Assembly: GCA_016703105.1 (NCBI GenBank)
Contig: JADJCS010000007.1
Location: 143,810-207,809, forward strand
Length of the DNA stretch: 64,000 nucleotides
Direction: 5' to 3'
Source: Flavobacteriales bacterium
Lineage (GTDB): Bacteria; Bacteroidota; Bacteroidia; Flavobacteriales_F; PHOS-HE28
Position numbers and translations under genes: made by a program. Shown here piece after piece: positions 21,475-30,116 of this stretch (the first letter of the stretch is position 1; each line of letters begins with the position of its first letter). The notes beneath the pieces are model-generated. The model was not told the DNA's origin, made no database searches, and saw nothing but the letters and a program-made list of their open reading frames with translations.

Positions 21475-23124
21475 TTATGGGTGATTCGCTGATGGCCGAG
21501 TGAGTTTGCGCAATTCGGCTAAAGCCGCATTGATCTCATCGCCCTTTGCAGCTATCAGATCCATCAATTCGATCGGGGTCCGCTCATCCACATCCGCTTT
21601 CCGGTTCGGGTTCACGGCCTTCAGGTCGTAAACGCTGTTGAGCCGGTCCTTGCGCTTGGCCTCGTCAAGCTTCGCTGCTTCCTCTTGGGCTTTCTTCTTC
21701 CGCGCATCCAGGTCAATGGTCCAACTGCGTTCACTATCGGTGCGGGTGGGTAGCAGGCGGAAGAACTCCTCGAAGTGGTCCAAGGTCATTGGGTTCTTCT
21801 TGCGGATCTTCAGATCGCTGAGGTCGTAGTACCAGATCTTGCGCGTGGGCTGGCCCTTGGTGAAGAAGAGCAAGTTGGTCTTTACGCCTGCGCCCGCTTG
21901 GGTGAAGACACCACCCGGCAAGCTCACGATGCACCATAAATCACACTCGTTCAAGAGCTTCTGCTTAGTCTTCACGAAGGCATCCTCGTTCGCACGGAAG
22001 AGCACGCCTTCGTCGAGCACGATACCGCAACGGCTCTTGTTCTTCATGTGCTTCAGCAAATGCTGTATGAAGAGCACCTGCGTGCTGCTGGTTTTGTAGG
22101 CGAAGTCCGTTTGCGCCTCCTTGCCCTCCTTGCCGCCGAAGGGTGGGTTCGTGAGGATCACATCGAAGAATTCCGGTGCGCCTTCAAAGAGACCTTCATA
22201 GTCAATGCGACCAGTAAGGGTGTTGCCCCACCAGAGGTTGGGCTTGTCGATGCCGTGCAGGATGAGATTGGCCAGCGCGATGGGAAAAATGAGACCCTCT
22301 TTCTCGCGGCCGAAGAAGGTCTTGTTCTTCAGTGTGGTCAACTGGTTGGCCGTGGCCTTGGCGCCGTAGGTGTTGATCACGTGCTCATAGGCCTCGGCCA
22401 AGAAACCACCGGTACCACACCCCGGGTCATAGATGGTCTCGCCGGGTTTGGGGTCGATAGCCTTGACAACCGCTTTGATCACTTGACGAGGCGTGAAGAA
22501 CTGCCCACCGTCGTTGTTCTTTTCGCCCATCTTCAGCAACAGGCCTTCGTAGACCTGGCTGAGCGCGAAGACGTGCGAGGAATCCATGCTTTCCTGTTGC
22601 AGCTCGTGGACTTTGTCGAGCACATCAAGGAAGTTACGCTCCGTATCCACCCGCACTTTCTCCACGCTGTTCATCACCTCGCTGATCACCTTCTGGCGGG
22701 CGGTGGCGCGCGGATGGTCCTTCAGGCTCTTTAGGTAGGGCAGCAACTTCTCGTTCACGAAGGCGAACAAGGAGCCTTGCGGCGCGGACGTGAGTTCCTC
22801 ACGTTTCTTGGCCTTGGGCGCTGCCCAGTCCTGCCAACGGTATGGCGCGTTGATGCTCGCAGCGAACGCGCGCCCTACGGCCTTGTTCTCGCTCGCCTCC
22901 TGTGTCTCGCGCTCATCCAGGATCCGCAGGAAGAGGATCCACGTGAGTTCGGGGATGTACTGCAACGCGCTGGTGCAGCCACCGCGACGCAGGATGTCGC
23001 AGATGGTCTTCACCGCGCTGTTCACGCTGCTTTGCGAGGACAAGGCACGAGCCATTTCCTTCGGCACGCGCTCCTTCTTCACCTTGCCTGGCGCGGCATT
23101 CTTGCGGGGGTGTCCTTTGGGCAT
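21475..23124 (-). CDS. hsdM: Type I restriction-modification system DNA methyltransferase subunit
   Basis: N6-adenine MTase motifs 'DPGCGTGGFL' (motif I) and 'NPPFGG' (motif IV). 549 aa. Confidence 0.95.
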   Translation of the reverse strand: MPKGHPRKNAAPGKVKKERVPKEMARALSSQSSVNSAVKTICDILRRGGCTSALQYIPELTWILFLRILDERETQEASENKAVGRAFAASINAPYRWQDWAAPKAKKREELTSAPQGSLFAFVNEKLLPYLKSLKDHPRATARQKVISEVMNSVEKVRVDTERNFLDVLDKVHELQQESMDSSHVFALSQVYEGLLLKMGEKNNDGGQFFTPRQVIKAVVKAIDPKPGETIYDPGCGTGGFLAEAYEHVINTYGAKATANQLTTLKNKTFFGREKEGLIFPIALANLILHGIDKPNLWWGNTLTGRIDYEGLFEGAPEFFDVILTNPPFGGKEGKEAQTDFAYKTSSTQVLFIQHLLKHMKNKSRCGIVLDEGVLFRANEDAFVKTKQKLLNECDLWCIVSLPGGVFTQAGAGVKTNLLFFTKGQPTRKIWYYDLSDLKIRKKNPMTLDHFEEFFRLLPTRTDSERSWTIDLDARKKKAQEEAAKLDEAKRKDRLNSVYDLKAVNPNRKADVDERTPIELMDLIAAKGDEINAALAELRKLTRPSANHP

Positions 23125-23129
23125 GCGGG

Positions 23130-23573
23130 TCAGGTCTTCAGCGCGCCCTTGGCCAAGCGATCACGAACGGAATTGCTCAGCATCACAGGAGGCTGCTTAT
23201 CAGAACCTGTCATATCAAGGCATCCATCGAAGCGATCAGGAAAAGGAATGATCTGCGCGTGAGCGCCATTCTCGGGGTCTTCTGCGGGATGGGGATCGTG
23301 GCAAACGCACAAGGCCAATGAGCGCACATGGGCGGTGGCCAAGCGGCACAAGCAGTACTTACCGGGATCCGTTGTCGCCTTCTTGGCCCGTTCCAGCGTG
23401 GTCAATCGCTCTACATCCACAGAAAGCCCACTTTCCCCCTTGTCTTTGCGCAACCGGAATGCCAGCGGTGTCGCCGTTCCATCCTCGCGGAAGTAATTGT
23501 CTCCTTCAGCGTACACCCGGCGCAGCAACATGTCAGCGTCAGCGATCGCCTGCCGTGGTATCCTACTTTCCAT
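23130..23573 (-). CDS. hypothetical protein Z, RM-embedded cargo
   Basis: ORF 23130..23630; start ambiguous, with ATGs at 23573 and 23531. Stop is 6 nt before the hsdM start. No recognisable family. Confidence 0.4.
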   Translation of the reverse strand: MESRIPRQAIADADMLLRRVYAEGDNYFREDGTATPLAFRLRKDKGESGLSVDVERLTTLERAKKATTDPGKYCLCRLATAHVRSLALCVCHDPHPAEDPENGAHAQIIPFPDRFDGCLDMTGSDKQPPVMLSNSVRDRLAKGALKT

Positions 23574-24048
23574 GCAGATGGTCCAACAGGCGGTGCGGGC
23601 GGTACGCACCCTCATAAGGATATTCATCACCCTCGATCAGGAGCAATTCGTTGCCGTCCTCTGCACTGAAGTACACTTGGGCCTGCCGTTTACCAGGGGC
23701 CTTGAACTCGATAAACAGTTCGCCGTTGGGCCCTGCACCGATGTGGTTAGGGATGAAACCAGCGTAGCCCAGGTCCTTCACAGCTCGCTTCGCCATGCGC
23801 ACCGTGGCTTGTGATGGGGCAATGGCACCCATGCCGTCCCAATCTGCCTTGAGTGCGCGTGTGCGTTCGATCCGGGCCAGTTGGTAACGCAACTCTTCGC
23901 TCACGGGGTATGAGAGGTGCGCATCGATCACAGAACTGGTGGCGCTGGAAGAGAACGCGATGGTGAGCAGCCCTTTGATCTTGTCCGACCAAACGCTGGT
24001 GTAATCGTCCACTTGCGTGGGTATGCCAAGGCTAAGCGAAGGAGGCAT
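23563..24048 (-). CDS. hypothetical protein Y, RM-embedded cargo
   Basis: 161-aa ORF with ATG start, tightly packed between X and Z. No recognisable family. Confidence 0.4.
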   Translation of the reverse strand: MPPSLSLGIPTQVDDYTSVWSDKIKGLLTIAFSSSATSSVIDAHLSYPVSEELRYQLARIERTRALKADWDGMGAIAPSQATVRMAKRAVKDLGYAGFIPNHIGAGPNGELFIEFKAPGKRQAQVYFSAEDGNELLLIEGDEYPYEGAYRPHRLLDHLHGK

Positions 24049-24778
24049 GGAAGTCGGGTTGGCAGAAGTCCTTGAAAAGCTTCGAACTCAGATCGTGCGC
24101 AGTGTTACCCCAAGCCAGCAGCCCGGCGCGGTCGAAGGATCCTTTCCGCTGCACGGTGGTTTGCCAGATCAGGCGGTCATCGCCGTCACGATCCGTGCCA
24201 CTGCCGATCTGCAAATGCAGTTGGTCGTCGTCGGGCAGGTCGAACAGCTGCTGAAACGAGACGTCCTTGGGCACCATGCCATGGTCGAATTGGTTGGCGA
24301 AGCCGAAGCGTAGGTGCTTGGAGATGAACGACGCCCAATCGGTGAAGCCATAGTCCTTCACCTTCACACTGTCTATGTACCGCAAGGCCACCTGCTCATA
24401 GGGCAAGGTTCCGTCGTAGGCTTTCTCCAGCATTTCCAACCCGTAGATCAGGGTGGGCTGGTAGCTCTCCTGCCAATCGTAGTTCTTGTCCGTATCGTTC
24501 ACGGTGAACACTCCGGGGCCCAATTGCAGCAACGGGCTGGCACCTGGCTCCTTCCGGAATTGCAGCACCGCCTGCCGTGCGAAGAGGTGCTGAGTAAGCG
24601 GATGGAATGGCAGTCGCTGATCCACATGCGGGAAGCGTTCCTGCACATGGGCTTTTAGCGCACCGGCGGCCAAACTATATTTCTGGTCGTACTCCTGACC
24701 CGTAGCCTGGTCGGTATCCAAGGCCCACCGGGCCTCGAAGATCACTTCTTGCAAGGGGGCGTTCGATAGGCGGCTCAT
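24032..24778 (-). CDS. hypothetical protein X, RM-embedded cargo
   Basis: ~250 aa; start trimmed to MSRLSNAPLQEVIFEARW. Directly downstream of hsdS; no recognisable catalytic motif. Confidence 0.45.
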   Translation of the reverse strand: MSRLSNAPLQEVIFEARWALDTDQATGQEYDQKYSLAAGALKAHVQERFPHVDQRLPFHPLTQHLFARQAVLQFRKEPGASPLLQLGPGVFTVNDTDKNYDWQESYQPTLIYGLEMLEKAYDGTLPYEQVALRYIDSVKVKDYGFTDWASFISKHLRFGFANQFDHGMVPKDVSFQQLFDLPDDDQLHLQIGSGTDRDGDDRLIWQTTVQRKGSFDRAGLLAWGNTAHDLSSKLFKDFCQPDFHASFA

Positions 24779-24864
24779 CAGGAGGTCAACGCAAAGTAAT
24801 CCGGCTTGGTGCGCGCGCAACGGCGAGCCTGCTAAATTGTGTTACACAAAGGCATGTTGGCAAG

Positions 24865-26070
24865 CTACCCGCCTCCGAACACCGCCCCCAACAACTTCCC
24901 GGGCAGTGCCTCGATCACCGCACCTTCTTCGTTGCACTTCGCCACGGTACCCCGGCTTAGCCGGATCGCCTTCTCCAACCGATCCGCGATGGAGCGTTGT
25001 TCAGCCAGCGAAGGCACATGTAGTTGCAGACTCTTGATCGTGGGCATGTACACCGTCTTGTGCGTGGCCCCGCTGGATAGGCCTCGGAAAAAATGCCGCG
25101 ATGCCATGAACGCGTACATCAAGTAGCGAGGGTCCAGTTGTTCGCCGCACACCCAGTTCGCGAAGTCCTGACTGGTAGCCATTTCACGCCCCATGATGGT
25201 GGTGAAGCCTACCGACGCCGTGCGCGAAAGACACACCGTTCCCTTCGGGAGCAGTCGCGCGGCGGAGTTCGCCAAGCCCAACTCGTTCGTGCGTTCACCG
25301 GAGCGCATGGCCACTTCTCCATCCAGCCTGCGCACATCGGAGAGTTGCAACCACTCCACATCGCCATGCCACCATTCGGGATGGTTCCGGCTCGGGGTAT
25401 GGCCGCTTTCCAATCGCGCCAACTTGGTGATCAGTTTCCACGACCAGCCCTTTCGTTCACCTACTTCATCGCTGTCCAGTGCTACCGGAACGATACCATG
25501 GAACGCATCCAGCAACAGCTTTGCTTCCAACCTCCCCGCCGCCGCTACCCGCTCCGCCGCCGCCTTGCGCGCCTTCTCTACTGCCGCCAGCTGCCCTGTG
25601 AGCAAACCCGCGATGCGGTTCTGTTCGTTAGGTCCGTGCTTCGGCACCATCATCTTCATCAACTCTTTCATACTCGCACGGGGCATCCTCGACCCGGTGG
25701 TATCTCTCATAGCTAACTCAACCGCTTCAGGACGCCGCAACAAATAGGAGAGATACTCACGGGAAGTGCCGGGGGTCGGAAGCAAGGGGATGATCTCCGT
25801 CGTACACCTTCCGGGCTGGTCGGGCAGTGCGACTTTGTTCAAGTAGGGCCGAAGCTTCCCATAGAGCACATGGCGTTCATCGTAGTAGAACGTGGTGCTC
25901 TTGCCTTCATCCGCGACCGCATCTTCTGGTTCCTTCAGCAGCCGACCAGTCTGCGCCTCGACGTGCTCCAAGCTGAGGTAGGAAAGTCGGCGGGCCTCTG
26001 CGGAGCCACCTTCAACTATCCTCCTGTCTTCGATGCAGAGTGATAACAGCGGGATGAACTCGCTCTTCAT
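24865..26070 (-). CDS. hsdS: Type I restriction-modification specificity subunit
   Basis: 401 aa with two target-recognition domains separated by conserved coiled-coil spacer regions. ATGA overlap with the upstream hsdR tail. Confidence 0.85.
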   Translation of the reverse strand: MKSEFIPLLSLCIEDRRIVEGGSAEARRLSYLSLEHVEAQTGRLLKEPEDAVADEGKSTTFYYDERHVLYGKLRPYLNKVALPDQPGRCTTEIIPLLPTPGTSREYLSYLLRRPEAVELAMRDTTGSRMPRASMKELMKMMVPKHGPNEQNRIAGLLTGQLAAVEKARKAAAERVAAAGRLEAKLLLDAFHGIVPVALDSDEVGERKGWSWKLITKLARLESGHTPSRNHPEWWHGDVEWLQLSDVRRLDGEVAMRSGERTNELGLANSAARLLPKGTVCLSRTASVGFTTIMGREMATSQDFANWVCGEQLDPRYLMYAFMASRHFFRGLSSGATHKTVYMPTIKSLQLHVPSLAEQRSIADRLEKAIRLSRGTVAKCNEEGAVIEALPGKLLGAVFGGG

Positions 26071-26354
26071 GCCGCAAACATCCGCTTCTTGGTTTCCTCG
26101 AACAATACGGCAGGTTCACCGGCTAATTGCAAGGCCTGCAAGCCACCGGCATTGCGCACGGCAGGCGTTTGAAAGATCTGCGGGTTCTCCAGGCCCTCGG
26201 TGCCTTCCACTTTGAATTGCCCGGCAATGGCCAGCAGTGCAGCGCGCGTCTTCTCCGGCAAGGTGTGCAACCAGTCCTCATGCTTGTAGCGGAAGGCCCC
26301 ACGCGGTCTTCCGCGTGCGCGGCAAGGCACCCCAGCCCAGTTGCGCCAGCACAT
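26067..26354 (-). other. hsdR: out-of-frame C-terminal fragment of hsdR (EcoEI_R_C-like tail)
   Basis: '...YKHEDWLHTLPEKTRAALLAIAGQF...ENPQIFQTPAVRNAGGLQAL' is the conserved HsdR C-terminal domain. The frame shift sits at the C/G run near 26295-26300. Confidence 0.6.
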
Positions 26355-28461
26355 CGTACAGGTCGTAGGCTTCCATGGCGTCCACCAGTTGCACCACAGC
26401 CGGGCTGCAACCGCTGCTCACGAGCAGGTGCATCAGTTCCTCGCGCGTGGGTGGGTCCACCCATTGCTGCCGGAACTCTTCCAAACTGTGCGCTTCCTGC
26501 AAGAGACGTGTGGCCAGGCGCTGGCGGTATTCCTCCACGGGTATCGGCTTGGCCTGCCCATCCACCTCCGCCACGATGAAGTGCCCGGCGGGCGATACAT
26601 GCACGTCGAAGCCATCCACGGTGATGATGCGCGGGGGCTCACCCTCGCCGCCTCCTTCACTTCCTTCACCTTCTTTCTTCGGCTTGGTAATGAACTCCTC
26701 ACCGAATAGCCGCGTGGCGTTGGTGTAATCGTAGAGCCGGAACATCAGCTTCTGGCTCTCGGGGTGCAGGCGTGTGCCGCGCCCCACCATCTGGTAGAAG
26801 CTGATGGGACTCTTGAGGTATTTGAAGAAGACGATGTTGCGGATGATGGGCACATCCACGCCGGTGGTGAGCAGGTCCACCGTGGTGGCGATGAAGTGGC
26901 TGCGGGTGCTGGCGCGCAGGTCCGGCAGTTGGTCGTTGCCACTGCTGGCCGCCGTGCATTTGAAGGCGTACATGTCCAGCCGTTCGGCACCGTTGGCGGT
27001 ACACCATGCGGCGTAGAGGTTGTTCAGCTTCACAGCAACGGCATCGGCATGTGCATCACGGGCGCAGAAGATGATGGTCTTCTGTTCCGGACCGCCGCTT
27101 TCCAACAGGTAGTTGAAGAGGTCCTGGCACATGGCCGCCACGCGGTCCGGCAGCATTAAGCTGTTCTCGTAGGCGGTGCTGGCATAGTGCTCCTGTACGT
27201 CGGCCGTGGTAAGCAGCTCCCCTGTGCGAGCATCGCGTGGTTCGCGCGCCATGATCTCCTCCACGGTAAGGCCGCGCTCATCGATGCTCACGCGACCCTT
27301 CTTTATCTCGCATGCGGCGAGGTAGCCATCCTCCACGGCCTGTGTATAGCTGTACTCATAAACCGGTTCGCCGAAGTATTTCAGGTTGTTGGCGGTGATG
27401 GCCTTGTCGGCCTCGGCTTCCTTGGTGTGTGCCTCAACGGTCAGTTCGCGCGGTGTGGCGGTGAGACCGATCTGCGCGGCCTTCGCGTTGCGCTCCAGCA
27501 CTTTGCTCCACTTGCCCCATGCGCTGCGGTGGCACTCATCGATGACGATGTGTGAAAAGTGGTTCTCGGGATAGAAGGTGGTAAGGAAGGACGCGTCGCC
27601 CTCATCCGTATCGACCCCGAGCGTTTGGTAGGTGGCGATGTGAATGCGTGCGTTCTTGGCGTTGTTGGTCTCGCCCTTCTTGTACACCTCGGCGGCATCG
27701 GCACCGAAGGCGTTGTTGAAGGCACCGAGCGCCTGCGTGCGCAGTTCGTCGCGGTCGCAGAGGAAGAGGGCGCGCGTCATCTGGCCGGAATCGCTCAGGC
27801 GCTTGAGCAGATTCACGGCAATGAAGGTCTTGCCCGCACCGGTGGCGAGCGAGAGCAAGGCGCGCTTAGGTTCACCTGTCTTCTCGCACCGCGCCATCTT
27901 CTCGAACACGGCACGGATGGCGGCATCCTGATAATAGCGGCGCGTGCCTTCGCCGGTGGCATAAGGCTGCAACAGTGGCTTGGCGGCCTCGTCGTTCAAG
28001 CTGAAGCCTTGGGCCGATTCGTAGCGTGTGCGCAATTCATCCGGCCCAGGAAAATCGGACATCGGCATTGCGACCGTGGTCATGCCCGTATGCCTATCGA
28101 ACAGCACGAACATGTGCCCGTTGCTGCTGATAACGAACTGCACGTTCAGCCGTTCGCACTTGGCGTAGCACTTGGCTTGTTCCAGACCATGTCCAGGCAT
28201 CAGGCTTTCCTTCTTCGCTTCCAGTACCGCGAGCGCAACGGGCTGTTTGCCGCCGGTAACGCTCACGCGCAGCACATAATCCACCTTGCCGCTGCGCTGC
28301 CTGCGGGCCTTGTTGTCACCAATAAGGTCGATGCCGCCCGCCGTTTCCTCCCGCCGGATGTGGTCCTCGTTCCACCCGCACCGATAAATGGCGGGGTCGA
28401 TGAGCTTGGCGCGGGTGTCGGCTTCGTTGAACAAGGCGGGTGAAAGTAGGGTGCGGAACAA
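26278..28461 (-). CDS. hsdR: Type I restriction enzyme R subunit (frame breaks near C-terminus)
   Basis: N-terminal nuclease/'DUF' region, SF2 helicase motifs ('LATGAGKT', DEAH-like 'VIDECHRS'). The 727-aa frame ends at 26278; the conserved C-terminal domain continues in another frame. Confidence 0.9.
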   Translation of the reverse strand: MFRTLLSPALFNEADTRAKLIDPAIYRCGWNEDHIRREETAGGIDLIGDNKARRQRSGKVDYVLRVSVTGGKQPVALAVLEAKKESLMPGHGLEQAKCYAKCERLNVQFVISSNGHMFVLFDRHTGMTTVAMPMSDFPGPDELRTRYESAQGFSLNDEAAKPLLQPYATGEGTRRYYQDAAIRAVFEKMARCEKTGEPKRALLSLATGAGKTFIAVNLLKRLSDSGQMTRALFLCDRDELRTQALGAFNNAFGADAAEVYKKGETNNAKNARIHIATYQTLGVDTDEGDASFLTTFYPENHFSHIVIDECHRSAWGKWSKVLERNAKAAQIGLTATPRELTVEAHTKEAEADKAITANNLKYFGEPVYEYSYTQAVEDGYLAACEIKKGRVSIDERGLTVEEIMAREPRDARTGELLTTADVQEHYASTAYENSLMLPDRVAAMCQDLFNYLLESGGPEQKTIIFCARDAHADAVAVKLNNLYAAWCTANGAERLDMYAFKCTAASSGNDQLPDLRASTRSHFIATTVDLLTTGVDVPIIRNIVFFKYLKSPISFYQMVGRGTRLHPESQKLMFRLYDYTNATRLFGEEFITKPKKEGEGSEGGGEGEPPRIITVDGFDVHVSPAGHFIVAEVDGQAKPIPVEEYRQRLATRLLQEAHSLEEFRQQWVDPPTREELMHLLVSSGCSPAVVQLVDAMEAYDLYDVLAQLGWGALPRTRKTAWGLPLQA

Positions 28462-28551: not shown

Positions 28552-29382
28552 TCACCCTGCCGTGAGCAGGTTCGCAAGCACATTCGCACCAACGTCCTTG
28601 GCGAATTTGGCGGTGTGCCTGGACACCTCCACCGCCGCCCGCATCAACTTCTCACGGTTGCGGTCTTCAATTGTCCCGATCAGTCGCTCCACCCAGGGTC
28701 GATCTTCCTTAACGATGGCTATCGAAGTACCCTCCATCGCATCGCTTAAAGCCCGTGCATCGCGCAGGAGCAATTGCCAACCTTCTTCGTCGATCACTTC
28801 AGCGTTCTCGATGAATGGAAGCTGCAGCTGCACGGACTTGCGGAAGTGCATGTCCATCTGGGTAGACACAGGGCCTTCGATCAAGTTCAAGTACGAAGCA
28901 CGGAAACTCTCGGTCGGGGTGGCGTTCGCGATGATCTTCACCTTCTGGAATTTTTCGCGGATCAGGTCTTTAGAGATGTAGGTGATAAGCCAAGTGCGGA
29001 ACGTTTCCTTTTTCGAGAGGTAAGCACTGTCGTAGAGCACATGCACGATGCGCTCAGTGCTATAGCTCCGCGCTCCGCTATCATCCCCGTTCAGCTCACG
29101 TGAGTTGTTGAAGAAGCGGATCTGTTGGTTGCGCACTTGCTTGGGGTTTACCCTGAACTCCACCTGCAACGCTTCGACCTTTTCATGGAGTGGAACCCTA
29201 CCCCGCACACCGGCAATAGAAGTGATGGAAAGATTGTGCACGTACACATAGAAATCATTCAGGTCGAAACCCTTCAGACAGCTGATCTCCTTCACTTCGC
29301 TCGCAACCACCTTCAATGTAAATGGGCTGAGGACTTGATCACAGTGGATGCGAAATCCGAAGTAGCGCTCAAGATTCGTCAT
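28552..29382 (-). CDS. hypothetical protein, compositionally atypical (lower GC than surroundings)
   Basis: 276-aa ORF immediately upstream of hsdR. GC by eye ~52-55% against ~65% background. No motif assigned. Confidence 0.5.
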   Translation of the reverse strand: MTNLERYFGFRIHCDQVLSPFTLKVVASEVKEISCLKGFDLNDFYVYVHNLSITSIAGVRGRVPLHEKVEALQVEFRVNPKQVRNQQIRFFNNSRELNGDDSGARSYSTERIVHVLYDSAYLSKKETFRTWLITYISKDLIREKFQKVKIIANATPTESFRASYLNLIEGPVSTQMDMHFRKSVQLQLPFIENAEVIDEEGWQLLLRDARALSDAMEGTSIAIVKEDRPWVERLIGTIEDRNREKLMRAAVEVSRHTAKFAKDVGANVLANLLTAG

Positions 29383-29738: not shown

Positions 29739-30116
29739 GACCATGGTCTTCACCGAAGACACCTTGGTCTCCCGGTCCGGGACCATAGTCTCCGAACAGT
29801 AGACGATGGACTCCGGACAACAGACCATGGTCCGCAAGCAGCAGCCAATGGTCTCCGACGCGCGGACGATGGTCTACACCGAAGAGACGATAGTCTCCCG
29901 GTGCGAGACCATGGTCTCCGAATAGCAGACCATGGTCTGCGAGCAGTAGACGATGGTCTCCGACGCGGGGACGATGGTCTACTCCGAAGAGACGATCGTC
30001 TCCCGGCGCGGGACCATGGTCTCCGAACAGCAGACGAGGGTCCGCAAACTCTAGACGATGGTCTGCCACGCGCGGACCATGGTCTACGACGAAGAGACGA
30101 TGGTCTTCCGGTCCGG
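29739..30116. repeat. tandem array of ~18 x 21-bp units (core GACCATGGTC palindrome) with 5-unit (105-bp) higher-order periodicity
   Basis: Read directly: units 'acSatggtctNNNNNNNNNNg' cycle through five tail types (..ccgaagag / ..cccggNNcgNg / ..ccgaacagcag / ..gcgagcagtag / ..ccgacgcgggg) about 3.5 times. Confidence 0.9.

Follow-up and report, generated by a model that had tools for sequence, protein, structure and literature searches.

A conserved three-gene cassette with a predicted ADP-ribosyltransferase-fold protein lies between hsdS and hsdM of a Flavobacteriales Type I restriction-modification operon

We describe XYZ, a cassette of three genes situated between hsdS and hsdM of a Type I restriction-modification (R-M) operon in a Flavobacteriales bacterium (contig JADJCS010000007.1, positions 143,810 to 207,809; this whole stretch of 64,000 nucleotides (nt) is called the window). 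XYZ is a conserved, mobile three-gene module, often but not obligatorily found beside restriction systems, and its last gene encodes a protein with a predicted ADP-ribosyltransferase (ART) fold. The interpretation that we favour, with about as much confidence as doubt, is that XYZ forms a tripartite toxin-antitoxin (TA) or abortive-infection module whose effector has an atypical NAD fold. The three genes are as follows:

24032..24778, minus strand: gene X, 248 amino acids (aa), TIGR04255 family (NCBIfam match)
23563..24048, minus strand: gene Y, 161 aa, the middle gene, with no family match and a conserved position between X and Z
23130..23573, minus strand: gene Z, 147 aa, the last gene of the cassette, with a predicted ADP-ribosyltransferase fold (predicted structure)

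According to the open reading frame (ORF) list and our reading of the sequence, the order of genes on the minus strand is hsdR, hsdS, X, Y, Z and hsdM. X and Y overlap by 17 nt and Y and Z by 11 nt, while 5 nt, rather than the 6 nt first counted, separate the stop codon of Z from the hsdM ATG (23124). The ATG start of X is backed by a 100% identical 248-aa database protein (P0016) from a Flavobacteriales metagenome-assembled genome (MAG), and the start of Z agrees with a 99% identical 147-aa database protein, also from a Flavobacteriales MAG. With that one correction, the order and junctions given in the original prediction are confirmed by the ORFs, by the family matches and by the conservation of the trio in 66 cassettes.

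Eighty metagenomic loci were fetched with a profile of X, and all loci were scanned with hidden Markov models (HMMs) of X, Y and Z. Y and Z follow on the same strand in 69 of the 71 loci that have at least 1300 bp downstream of the X homologue; in the remaining two, both IMG/VR contigs, the TIGR04255 gene is a distant one. A search started from a distant Z (P0272) again yields X-Y-Z, and the same three overlapping genes were present in each of the contexts to which homologues of Z or X led. The trio recurs in dozens of unrelated bacteria. The 66 distinct cassettes found elsewhere are intact and keep the same order, at GC contents from 26 to 58%, and their modal X-Y overlap (taking the start codon nearest each upstream stop) is 17 nt, as in the window. 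Moreover, X, Y and Z have correlated matrices of pairwise identity (r = 0.71-0.81), a level that none of 999 permutations reaches. Because the trio is conserved and the identity matrices are correlated, X, Y and Z are, as judged from sequence comparison, inherited and selected together as a unit. X, Y and Z are neither remnants of a known gene nor housekeeping genes, and in this respect the original prediction is supported. A split second hsdS or other gene remnant was considered separately and rejected: no Methylase_S similarity was found, and each of the three genes is unbroken and retained in the 66 cassettes.

Z alone is truncated or frameshifted in two of about 52 cassettes (L011/L012 and L082), and Y is never lost alone, a pattern that would fit, though weakly, with Z as the harmful component. 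As regards a type II TA system, what is shown for XYZ is limited to the gene geometry, with its conserved overlaps, its co-divergence and this Z-only decay.

Some loci depart from the standard composition. On the Hymenobacter sp. APR13 plasmid pHA (NZ_CP006588.1, locus L101, 3540-6333), a Y-like protein (E 5e-13) and a Z-like ORF that carries no listed annotation (E 1e-33) come after a 618-aa DUF4209 protein, with no TIGR04255 gene, and a HipBA TA system adjoins; DUF4209 standing in the place of X suggests that the first gene of the cassette is replaceable. Two IMG/VR loci (L099, 674-2503, and L100, 5869-7740) carry TIGR04255 homologues that are distant (26-30% identity), and the two small ORFs behind these match neither the Y and Z HMMs nor Pfam. 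The third ORFs of both loci show '...QGD...SQ(C/S)C(E/D)', a similarity that is not significant (E 0.2), and in L099 a long ORF on the minus strand, lying some 1 kb further downstream, looks, by eye only, like a phage large terminase. Taken together, the pHA pair and the TIGR04255 genes of L099 and L100 suggest that the cassette is modular.

The protein Z matches nothing in Pfam, NCBIfam, PHROGs, PADLOC or, by profile, the PDB sequences, and 82 of its relatives match nothing in Pfam; its family comprises about 336 clusters at 50% identity. The AlphaFold2 model obtained with 11 close homologues had a predicted score in the local distance difference test (pLDDT) of 37, and the one obtained with an 82-sequence family alignment reached a pLDDT of 90.5 and a predicted template-modelling score of 0.86. 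Structural matches of the Z model include the type VI secretion system (T6SS) toxin Tse2 (score 6.0, the second-best), AvrPphF (5.6), RES toxins (5.1) and DarT (4.9), and further OspC3, pertussis-, cholera- and diphtheria-type toxins and others. A Foldseek search of the model against the PDB and BFVD gave no significant match (best PDB hit at E 1.4, one viral protein at E 2e-3), although the same toxin classes stood at the top. Z can be assigned to the split β-sheet ART/NAD+-binding fold at the level of predicted structure only.

The residues that reach 95% conservation or more across 213 family sequences are R18, R19, S51, P94, N102 and H105. R18/R19 lie on the first core strand (LLRRV) and S51 on the next (GLSVD), both at least 97% conserved, and the N102-x-Ala-H105 stretch, 95-100% conserved, is found in the loop and at the start of a later strand, with no Glu there. 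When residues are mapped to strands with the DSSP string of the model, and not by coordinate superposition, R18, R19, S51, N102 and H105 would be enzyme-like invariants on the predicted β1, β2 and β5-equivalent strands, at positions that we take to be the sites where ARTs of the R-S-E class carry Arg, Ser-Thr-Ser and Glu. On the same mapping, Z shows Arg-Arg/Ser/Asn-x-Ala-His in comparison with the ART catalytic triad (H-Y-E/D/Q or R-S-E). If this correspondence is true, an invariant His in place of the catalytic Glu would be of interest to enzymology, as it may mean a chemistry other than classical ADP-ribosyl transfer.

The Z protein of the window is a long form, with an extra Cys-containing insert of about 25 residues (approximately 111-133) and a C-terminal helix, whereas the short-form majority has no insert. 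In the long-form clade (alignment A1), C89, C91, H92, C118 and D120 are near-invariant around the clade-specific insert; residues 89-123 correspond to 23205-23309 of the window, and the confidence of the model is lowest there (pLDDT about 71). Judging by the alignment, this Cys/His/Asp cluster could be a metal-binding site.

The motif RLATAH in Z, which the original prediction had noted as HEPN-like, proved to be a chance occurrence. A HEPN nuclease was rejected, as R76 and H81 are not among the positions at least 60% conserved in the 213 members, and the predicted fold is the α/β ART fold. The kinship between Y and Z suspected from a shared 'EGD.Y..G' pattern has likewise to be put down to chance (hhalign probability 0.1%).

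X matches NCBIfam TIGR04255 with 77.9 bits (curated cutoff 30) and an E-value of 1e-21, residues 3-247 covering positions 1-251 of the 252 of the profile; this full-length match above the cutoff places it in the family, and NCBI and JGI label identical or related proteins 'TIGR04255 family protein'. X matches nothing in Pfam, PADLOC, PHROGs or the PDB sequences, and hhalign gives a relatedness of X to Z with a probability of at most 0.3%. TIGR04255 is a named but uncharacterised family: the searchable literature holds no mention of TIGR04255, IPR026349 or CHP04255. The search for X homologues found 103. Among the invariant residues are E11, E15, W18, D31, Q85, N94, Y100, Y134 and H228. The polar ones of these are compatible with X being either an enzyme or a binding protein, and it may act as a sensor or regulator, or as a reversing enzyme.

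The view that none of the three proteins could be assigned does not hold for X, but it does hold for Y and Z, which match no family library. Indeed, Pfam, NCBIfam, PHROGs and PADLOC gave no match for Y, nor did Pfam for nine of its relatives. Wherever the cassette is complete, Y separates X from Z, and it is the fastest-evolving of the three (median identity 29%), with a variable N-terminal part of about 60 aa followed by a conserved core (NWDxxGA ... PGPNGE). Y is a candidate antitoxin or adaptor. In the PDB its sole signal is a local one, in which 43 residues match the GHMP-kinase C-terminal domain of mevalonate diphosphate decarboxylase with E 2.8e-4 over the chain and 0.028 over the stretch; homology was discounted, this short match being taken as a local motif resemblance.

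The cassette is found in diverse genomic contexts. It comes after an MmeI-like Type IIG enzyme and Mrr in one of them, and in another after hsdR-hsdM-hsdS and a Ymh gene, with a PIN TA then downstream; elsewhere it stands beside HEPN and GmrSD genes, next to genes for a helicase, NOV_C and SNF2, adjacent to transposases (in Ca. Brocadia) and, in several contexts, between plain metabolic genes. Among 110 non-redundant immediate neighbours, the commonest Pfam families, without exception R-M or helicase families, are N6_Mtase, N6_N4_Mtase, Eco57I, Methylase_S and ResIII (5 each) and Helicase_C (4), and about 20 of the 110 have an R-M or helicase domain, the family counts overlapping. PADLOC assigns some of these neighbours to the subunits of Type I and Type III R-M systems. 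The neighbours are enriched for Type I, III and IIG R-M genes, at a level that we judge, against general expectation, to be far higher than for random genes. Small conflict genes adjoin cassette copies in L005 (6921-7700 and 10432-10800) and L004 (15500-16127), namely Hypoth_Ymh (PF09509), placed between hsdS and X, then a PIN-domain TA just downstream and, nearby, an MNT/HepT pair, which supports a defence/TA-island setting for these copies. A profile scan of genome contigs with a narrow Z alignment retrieved one locus only.

These contexts bear on the original prediction, in which the three genes were candidate defence cargo of an R-M operon, to be looked for beside R-M or other defence genes elsewhere. 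R-M neighbours do recur, and the conserved module, its R-M-enriched neighbourhood, the ART-fold Z and the absence from PADLOC speak for a defence candidate; however, most copies lie outside R-M operons, and the cassette is autonomous rather than R-M cargo as such.

In the TA or abortive-infection module that we favour, X, Y and Z would be made in a fixed ratio from overlapping, translationally coupled genes. Y, fast-evolving and with a variable N-terminal tail, would act as the antitoxin and keep Z inactive, and X would sense or relay a trigger such as phage infection, or stabilise or regulate the complex, or alternatively reverse the modification as an enzyme. The freed Z would be toxic: with NAD+ it would modify or deplete a cellular target, be it nucleic acid, protein or the NAD+ pool, and so arrest the cell, with a possible anti-phage outcome. 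If this is true, XYZ would provide the first functional context for TIGR04255 and two new protein families, Y and Z, and a three-component ART-fold module would join the NAD+-centred conflict systems (DarTG, CmdTAC, RES-Xre, ParST). XYZ is nevertheless one of hundreds of such candidates, all of them uncharacterised gene sets of defence islands.

Several points weigh against this interpretation. The canonical ART Glu/Asp/Gln is missing in the Z model, and for this reason Z may not transfer ADP-ribose; to our knowledge, ART activity has not been demonstrated for Tse2 itself. Neither a fold nor a motif can be assigned to X and Y, so that their roles are guesses, and Y is without a recognisable DNA-binding domain, in contrast to typical type II antitoxins. 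The sample behind the decay asymmetry is tiny and comes from metagenome assemblies, the R-M enrichment is judged against general expectation, and many cassettes sit among housekeeping genes. Finally, the phage and plasmid collections contained no X homologue, and Z on one Hymenobacter plasmid only.

As had been proposed for the locus, it was checked with PADLOC, which covers DarT and CmdTAC among its models. X, Y and Z match no model of PADLOC-DB v2.0.0, including the PDC candidate models, at E <= 0.1, and the flanking HsdM, HsdS and HsdR match strongly. There is no support for placing XYZ proteins in Tpt1/KptA, in HEPN or in any defence system so far catalogued. By analogy, the nearest systems in logic are CmdTAC, DarTG, ParST and RES-Xre, and in placement PrrC, TgvAB and guilt-by-embedding candidates. 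The omega-epsilon-zeta three-gene TA operons may also come to mind, with no known homology to XYZ and with X having no recognisable DNA-binding domain. DarTG, ParST, RES-Xre and MbcTA are made of two genes, their toxins being of the ART fold or using NAD+, whereas XYZ has a third conserved gene and, unlike them, contains no macrodomain, Xre/HTH or DUF2384 antitoxin; the predicted signature of Z, Arg-Arg / Ser / Asn-x-Ala-His, also differs from the H-Y-E, R-S-E or R-E-S of their toxins. CmdTAC likewise has three genes and an ART-fold effector, together with a neutralising partner and a third protein that senses infection, and both it and XYZ are compact, mobile and found in defence contexts (PMC11618068). 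No sequence relationship between the two was detected, X, Y and Z having no PADLOC match. CmdTAC has a SecB-like chaperone and XYZ instead the TIGR04255 protein X of about 250 aa, and in XYZ the effector gene is the last and Z has no catalytic Glu.

Rather than a defence module, the same TA-like cassette could be a purely selfish element serving the addiction or stabilisation of a genomic island, its position in the hsd operon being an accident of insertion. We consider this somewhat unlikely, since R-M genes recur as immediate neighbours across independent lineages and many similarly distributed TA modules, such as DarTG and CmdTAC, proved to be anti-phage (PMC11618068). It is also opposed by the fact that XYZ became associated with one and the same Type I family twice, independently. 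In locus L052 (5998-12741), a near-identical Type I system (HsdM E 5e-184, HsdR E 2e-196) has a contiguous hsdR-hsdS-hsdM and carries a different XYZ lineage (37% identity), which is convergent and lies about 7 nt from the end of the hsdM ORF. As L052 carries a different lineage, XYZ and the EcoAI-like Type I family were joined more than once, independently. Selfish and anti-phage roles are, however, not mutually exclusive.

Since the hsd genes of L052 are contiguous, the unusual R-S-M order appears native to this R-M family, and the layout of the window looks like an insertion of XYZ at the hsdS/hsdM junction. As such it would be a clean natural case of a module inserted at a Type I hsdS/hsdM junction, useful to 'guilt-by-embedding' discovery. 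The surrounding features of the window are as follows:

26067..28461, minus strand: hsdR, EcoAI-like Type I restriction subunit (NCBIfam restrict_EcoAI, E 4e-127)
24865..26070, minus strand: hsdS, Type I specificity subunit, directly upstream of the cassette (Pfam Methylase_S, E 2e-16; PADLOC Specificity_I, E 2e-63)
24779..24864, minus strand: hsdS-X spacer of 86 nt, holding a sigma-70-like match
21475..23124, minus strand: hsdM, Type I methyltransferase (Pfam N6_Mtase, E 1.5e-55, with HsdM_N; PADLOC MTase_I, E 9e-189)

The identities of HsdM, HsdS and HsdR agree across Pfam, NCBIfam and PADLOC. The main frame of hsdR extends from 28461 to 26278 and its last 80 or so codons are in a second frame reaching 26067, where the stop codon overlaps the hsdS ATG (ATGA). 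The second-frame segment (window 26067-26354) aligns with the C-terminus of the close L052 homologue, ending in ...RLFAA*, and the frameshift is located near 26297-26300, about 80 codons before the natural stop. Since a GGGG run adjoins it, an indel from the assembly of the MAG, a true pseudogene and a phase-variable tract are all conceivable. The GC content of the R-M/cassette segment (about 21.5-29.5 kb) is 0.52-0.62, lower than the 0.61-0.66 of its flanks, and for this reason the segment fits an acquired island. No convincing insertion scars, in the form of flanking direct or inverted repeats, were found around 23130-24864.

The spacer between hsdS and X contains a sigma-70-like match, TTGCCA-16-CACAAT (24863->24836), the sole one in the 8.6 kb scanned. 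It is weak, with 9 of 12 consensus positions, such matches are no commoner than in shuffled sequences, and Bacteroidota promoters were outside the scan; it is compatible with the cassette having its own promoter and proves nothing.

The placement itself would carry meaning if XYZ were a PrrC-like guard of the R-M system, silenced by the intact Type I complex and triggered by a phage anti-restriction protein, with embedding as a requirement. The cassette does lie within the hsd operon, with the 5-nt junction between Z and hsdM, and terminator prediction found none in the stretch from hsdS to hsdM; the trio also occurs repeatedly right after hsdS (directly so in L031 and L070) or against hsdM. 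Defence genes embedded in Type I R-M loci are an established pattern (TgvAB, PMC11411939; doi 10.1101/2024.01.29.577857). We regard this explanation as quite improbable, given that embedding between hsdS and hsdM is found only in this genome and in the identical contig L019, that R-M or helicase domains appear in only the 20 or so neighbours counted above, that many cassettes have no R-M gene in the available sequence, and that hsdR is frameshifted here. A guard of this kind would be expected almost exclusively inside Type I operons, and most cassettes have no hsd neighbour. PrrC/EcoprrI and TgvAB are, like the XYZ of the window, inside a Type I hsd operon and probably co-transcribed with it (PMC11411939; doi 10.1101/2024.01.29.577857), but their proteins are unrelated to X, Y and Z; as XYZ is mostly outside R-M operons, embedding does not define its context.

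Equally doubtful to us is a non-toxic nucleic-acid or NAD+ module, in which Z would be a minimal NAD+-dependent phosphotransferase like Tpt1/KptA or an RNA-end modifier acting in RNA repair, with X and Y handling the substrate. Membership of Z in Tpt1/KptA, which is recognised by a two-lobe architecture whose N-terminal RNA-binding lobe carries an Arg-His-Arg-Arg tetrad, together with a match to the family HMM, was examined and is not supported. A secreted interbacterial toxin with its immunity protein, like Tse2/Tsi2, with Z delivered and Y conferring immunity, is highly improbable: a trafficking domain is lacking at the N-terminus of Z, none of the neighbourhoods examined contains T6SS, Rhs, PAAR or LXG genes, and toxin-immunity pairs have nothing that corresponds to the conserved third gene X.

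Two further features were observed upstream of the operon. Directly upstream of hsdR, in the part of the island with the lowest GC content (0.52-0.56), lies a 276-aa ORF (window 28552-29382, minus strand) that matches nothing in Pfam, PADLOC or PHROGs and gives a sub-threshold NCBIfam sigma-factor match (E 0.022). Its kinship with another 276-aa ORF, beside the L015 cassette, was rejected for lack of any similarity. Just upstream of this ORF and hsdR, a tandem array occupies window positions 29781-30112, with a 21-nt period, about 15 copies and a 105-nt super-period repeated three times; repetitive ORFs that arise from it on both strands are spurious. The palindrome AGACCATGGTCT is present in its units, and the array could be one of binding sites.

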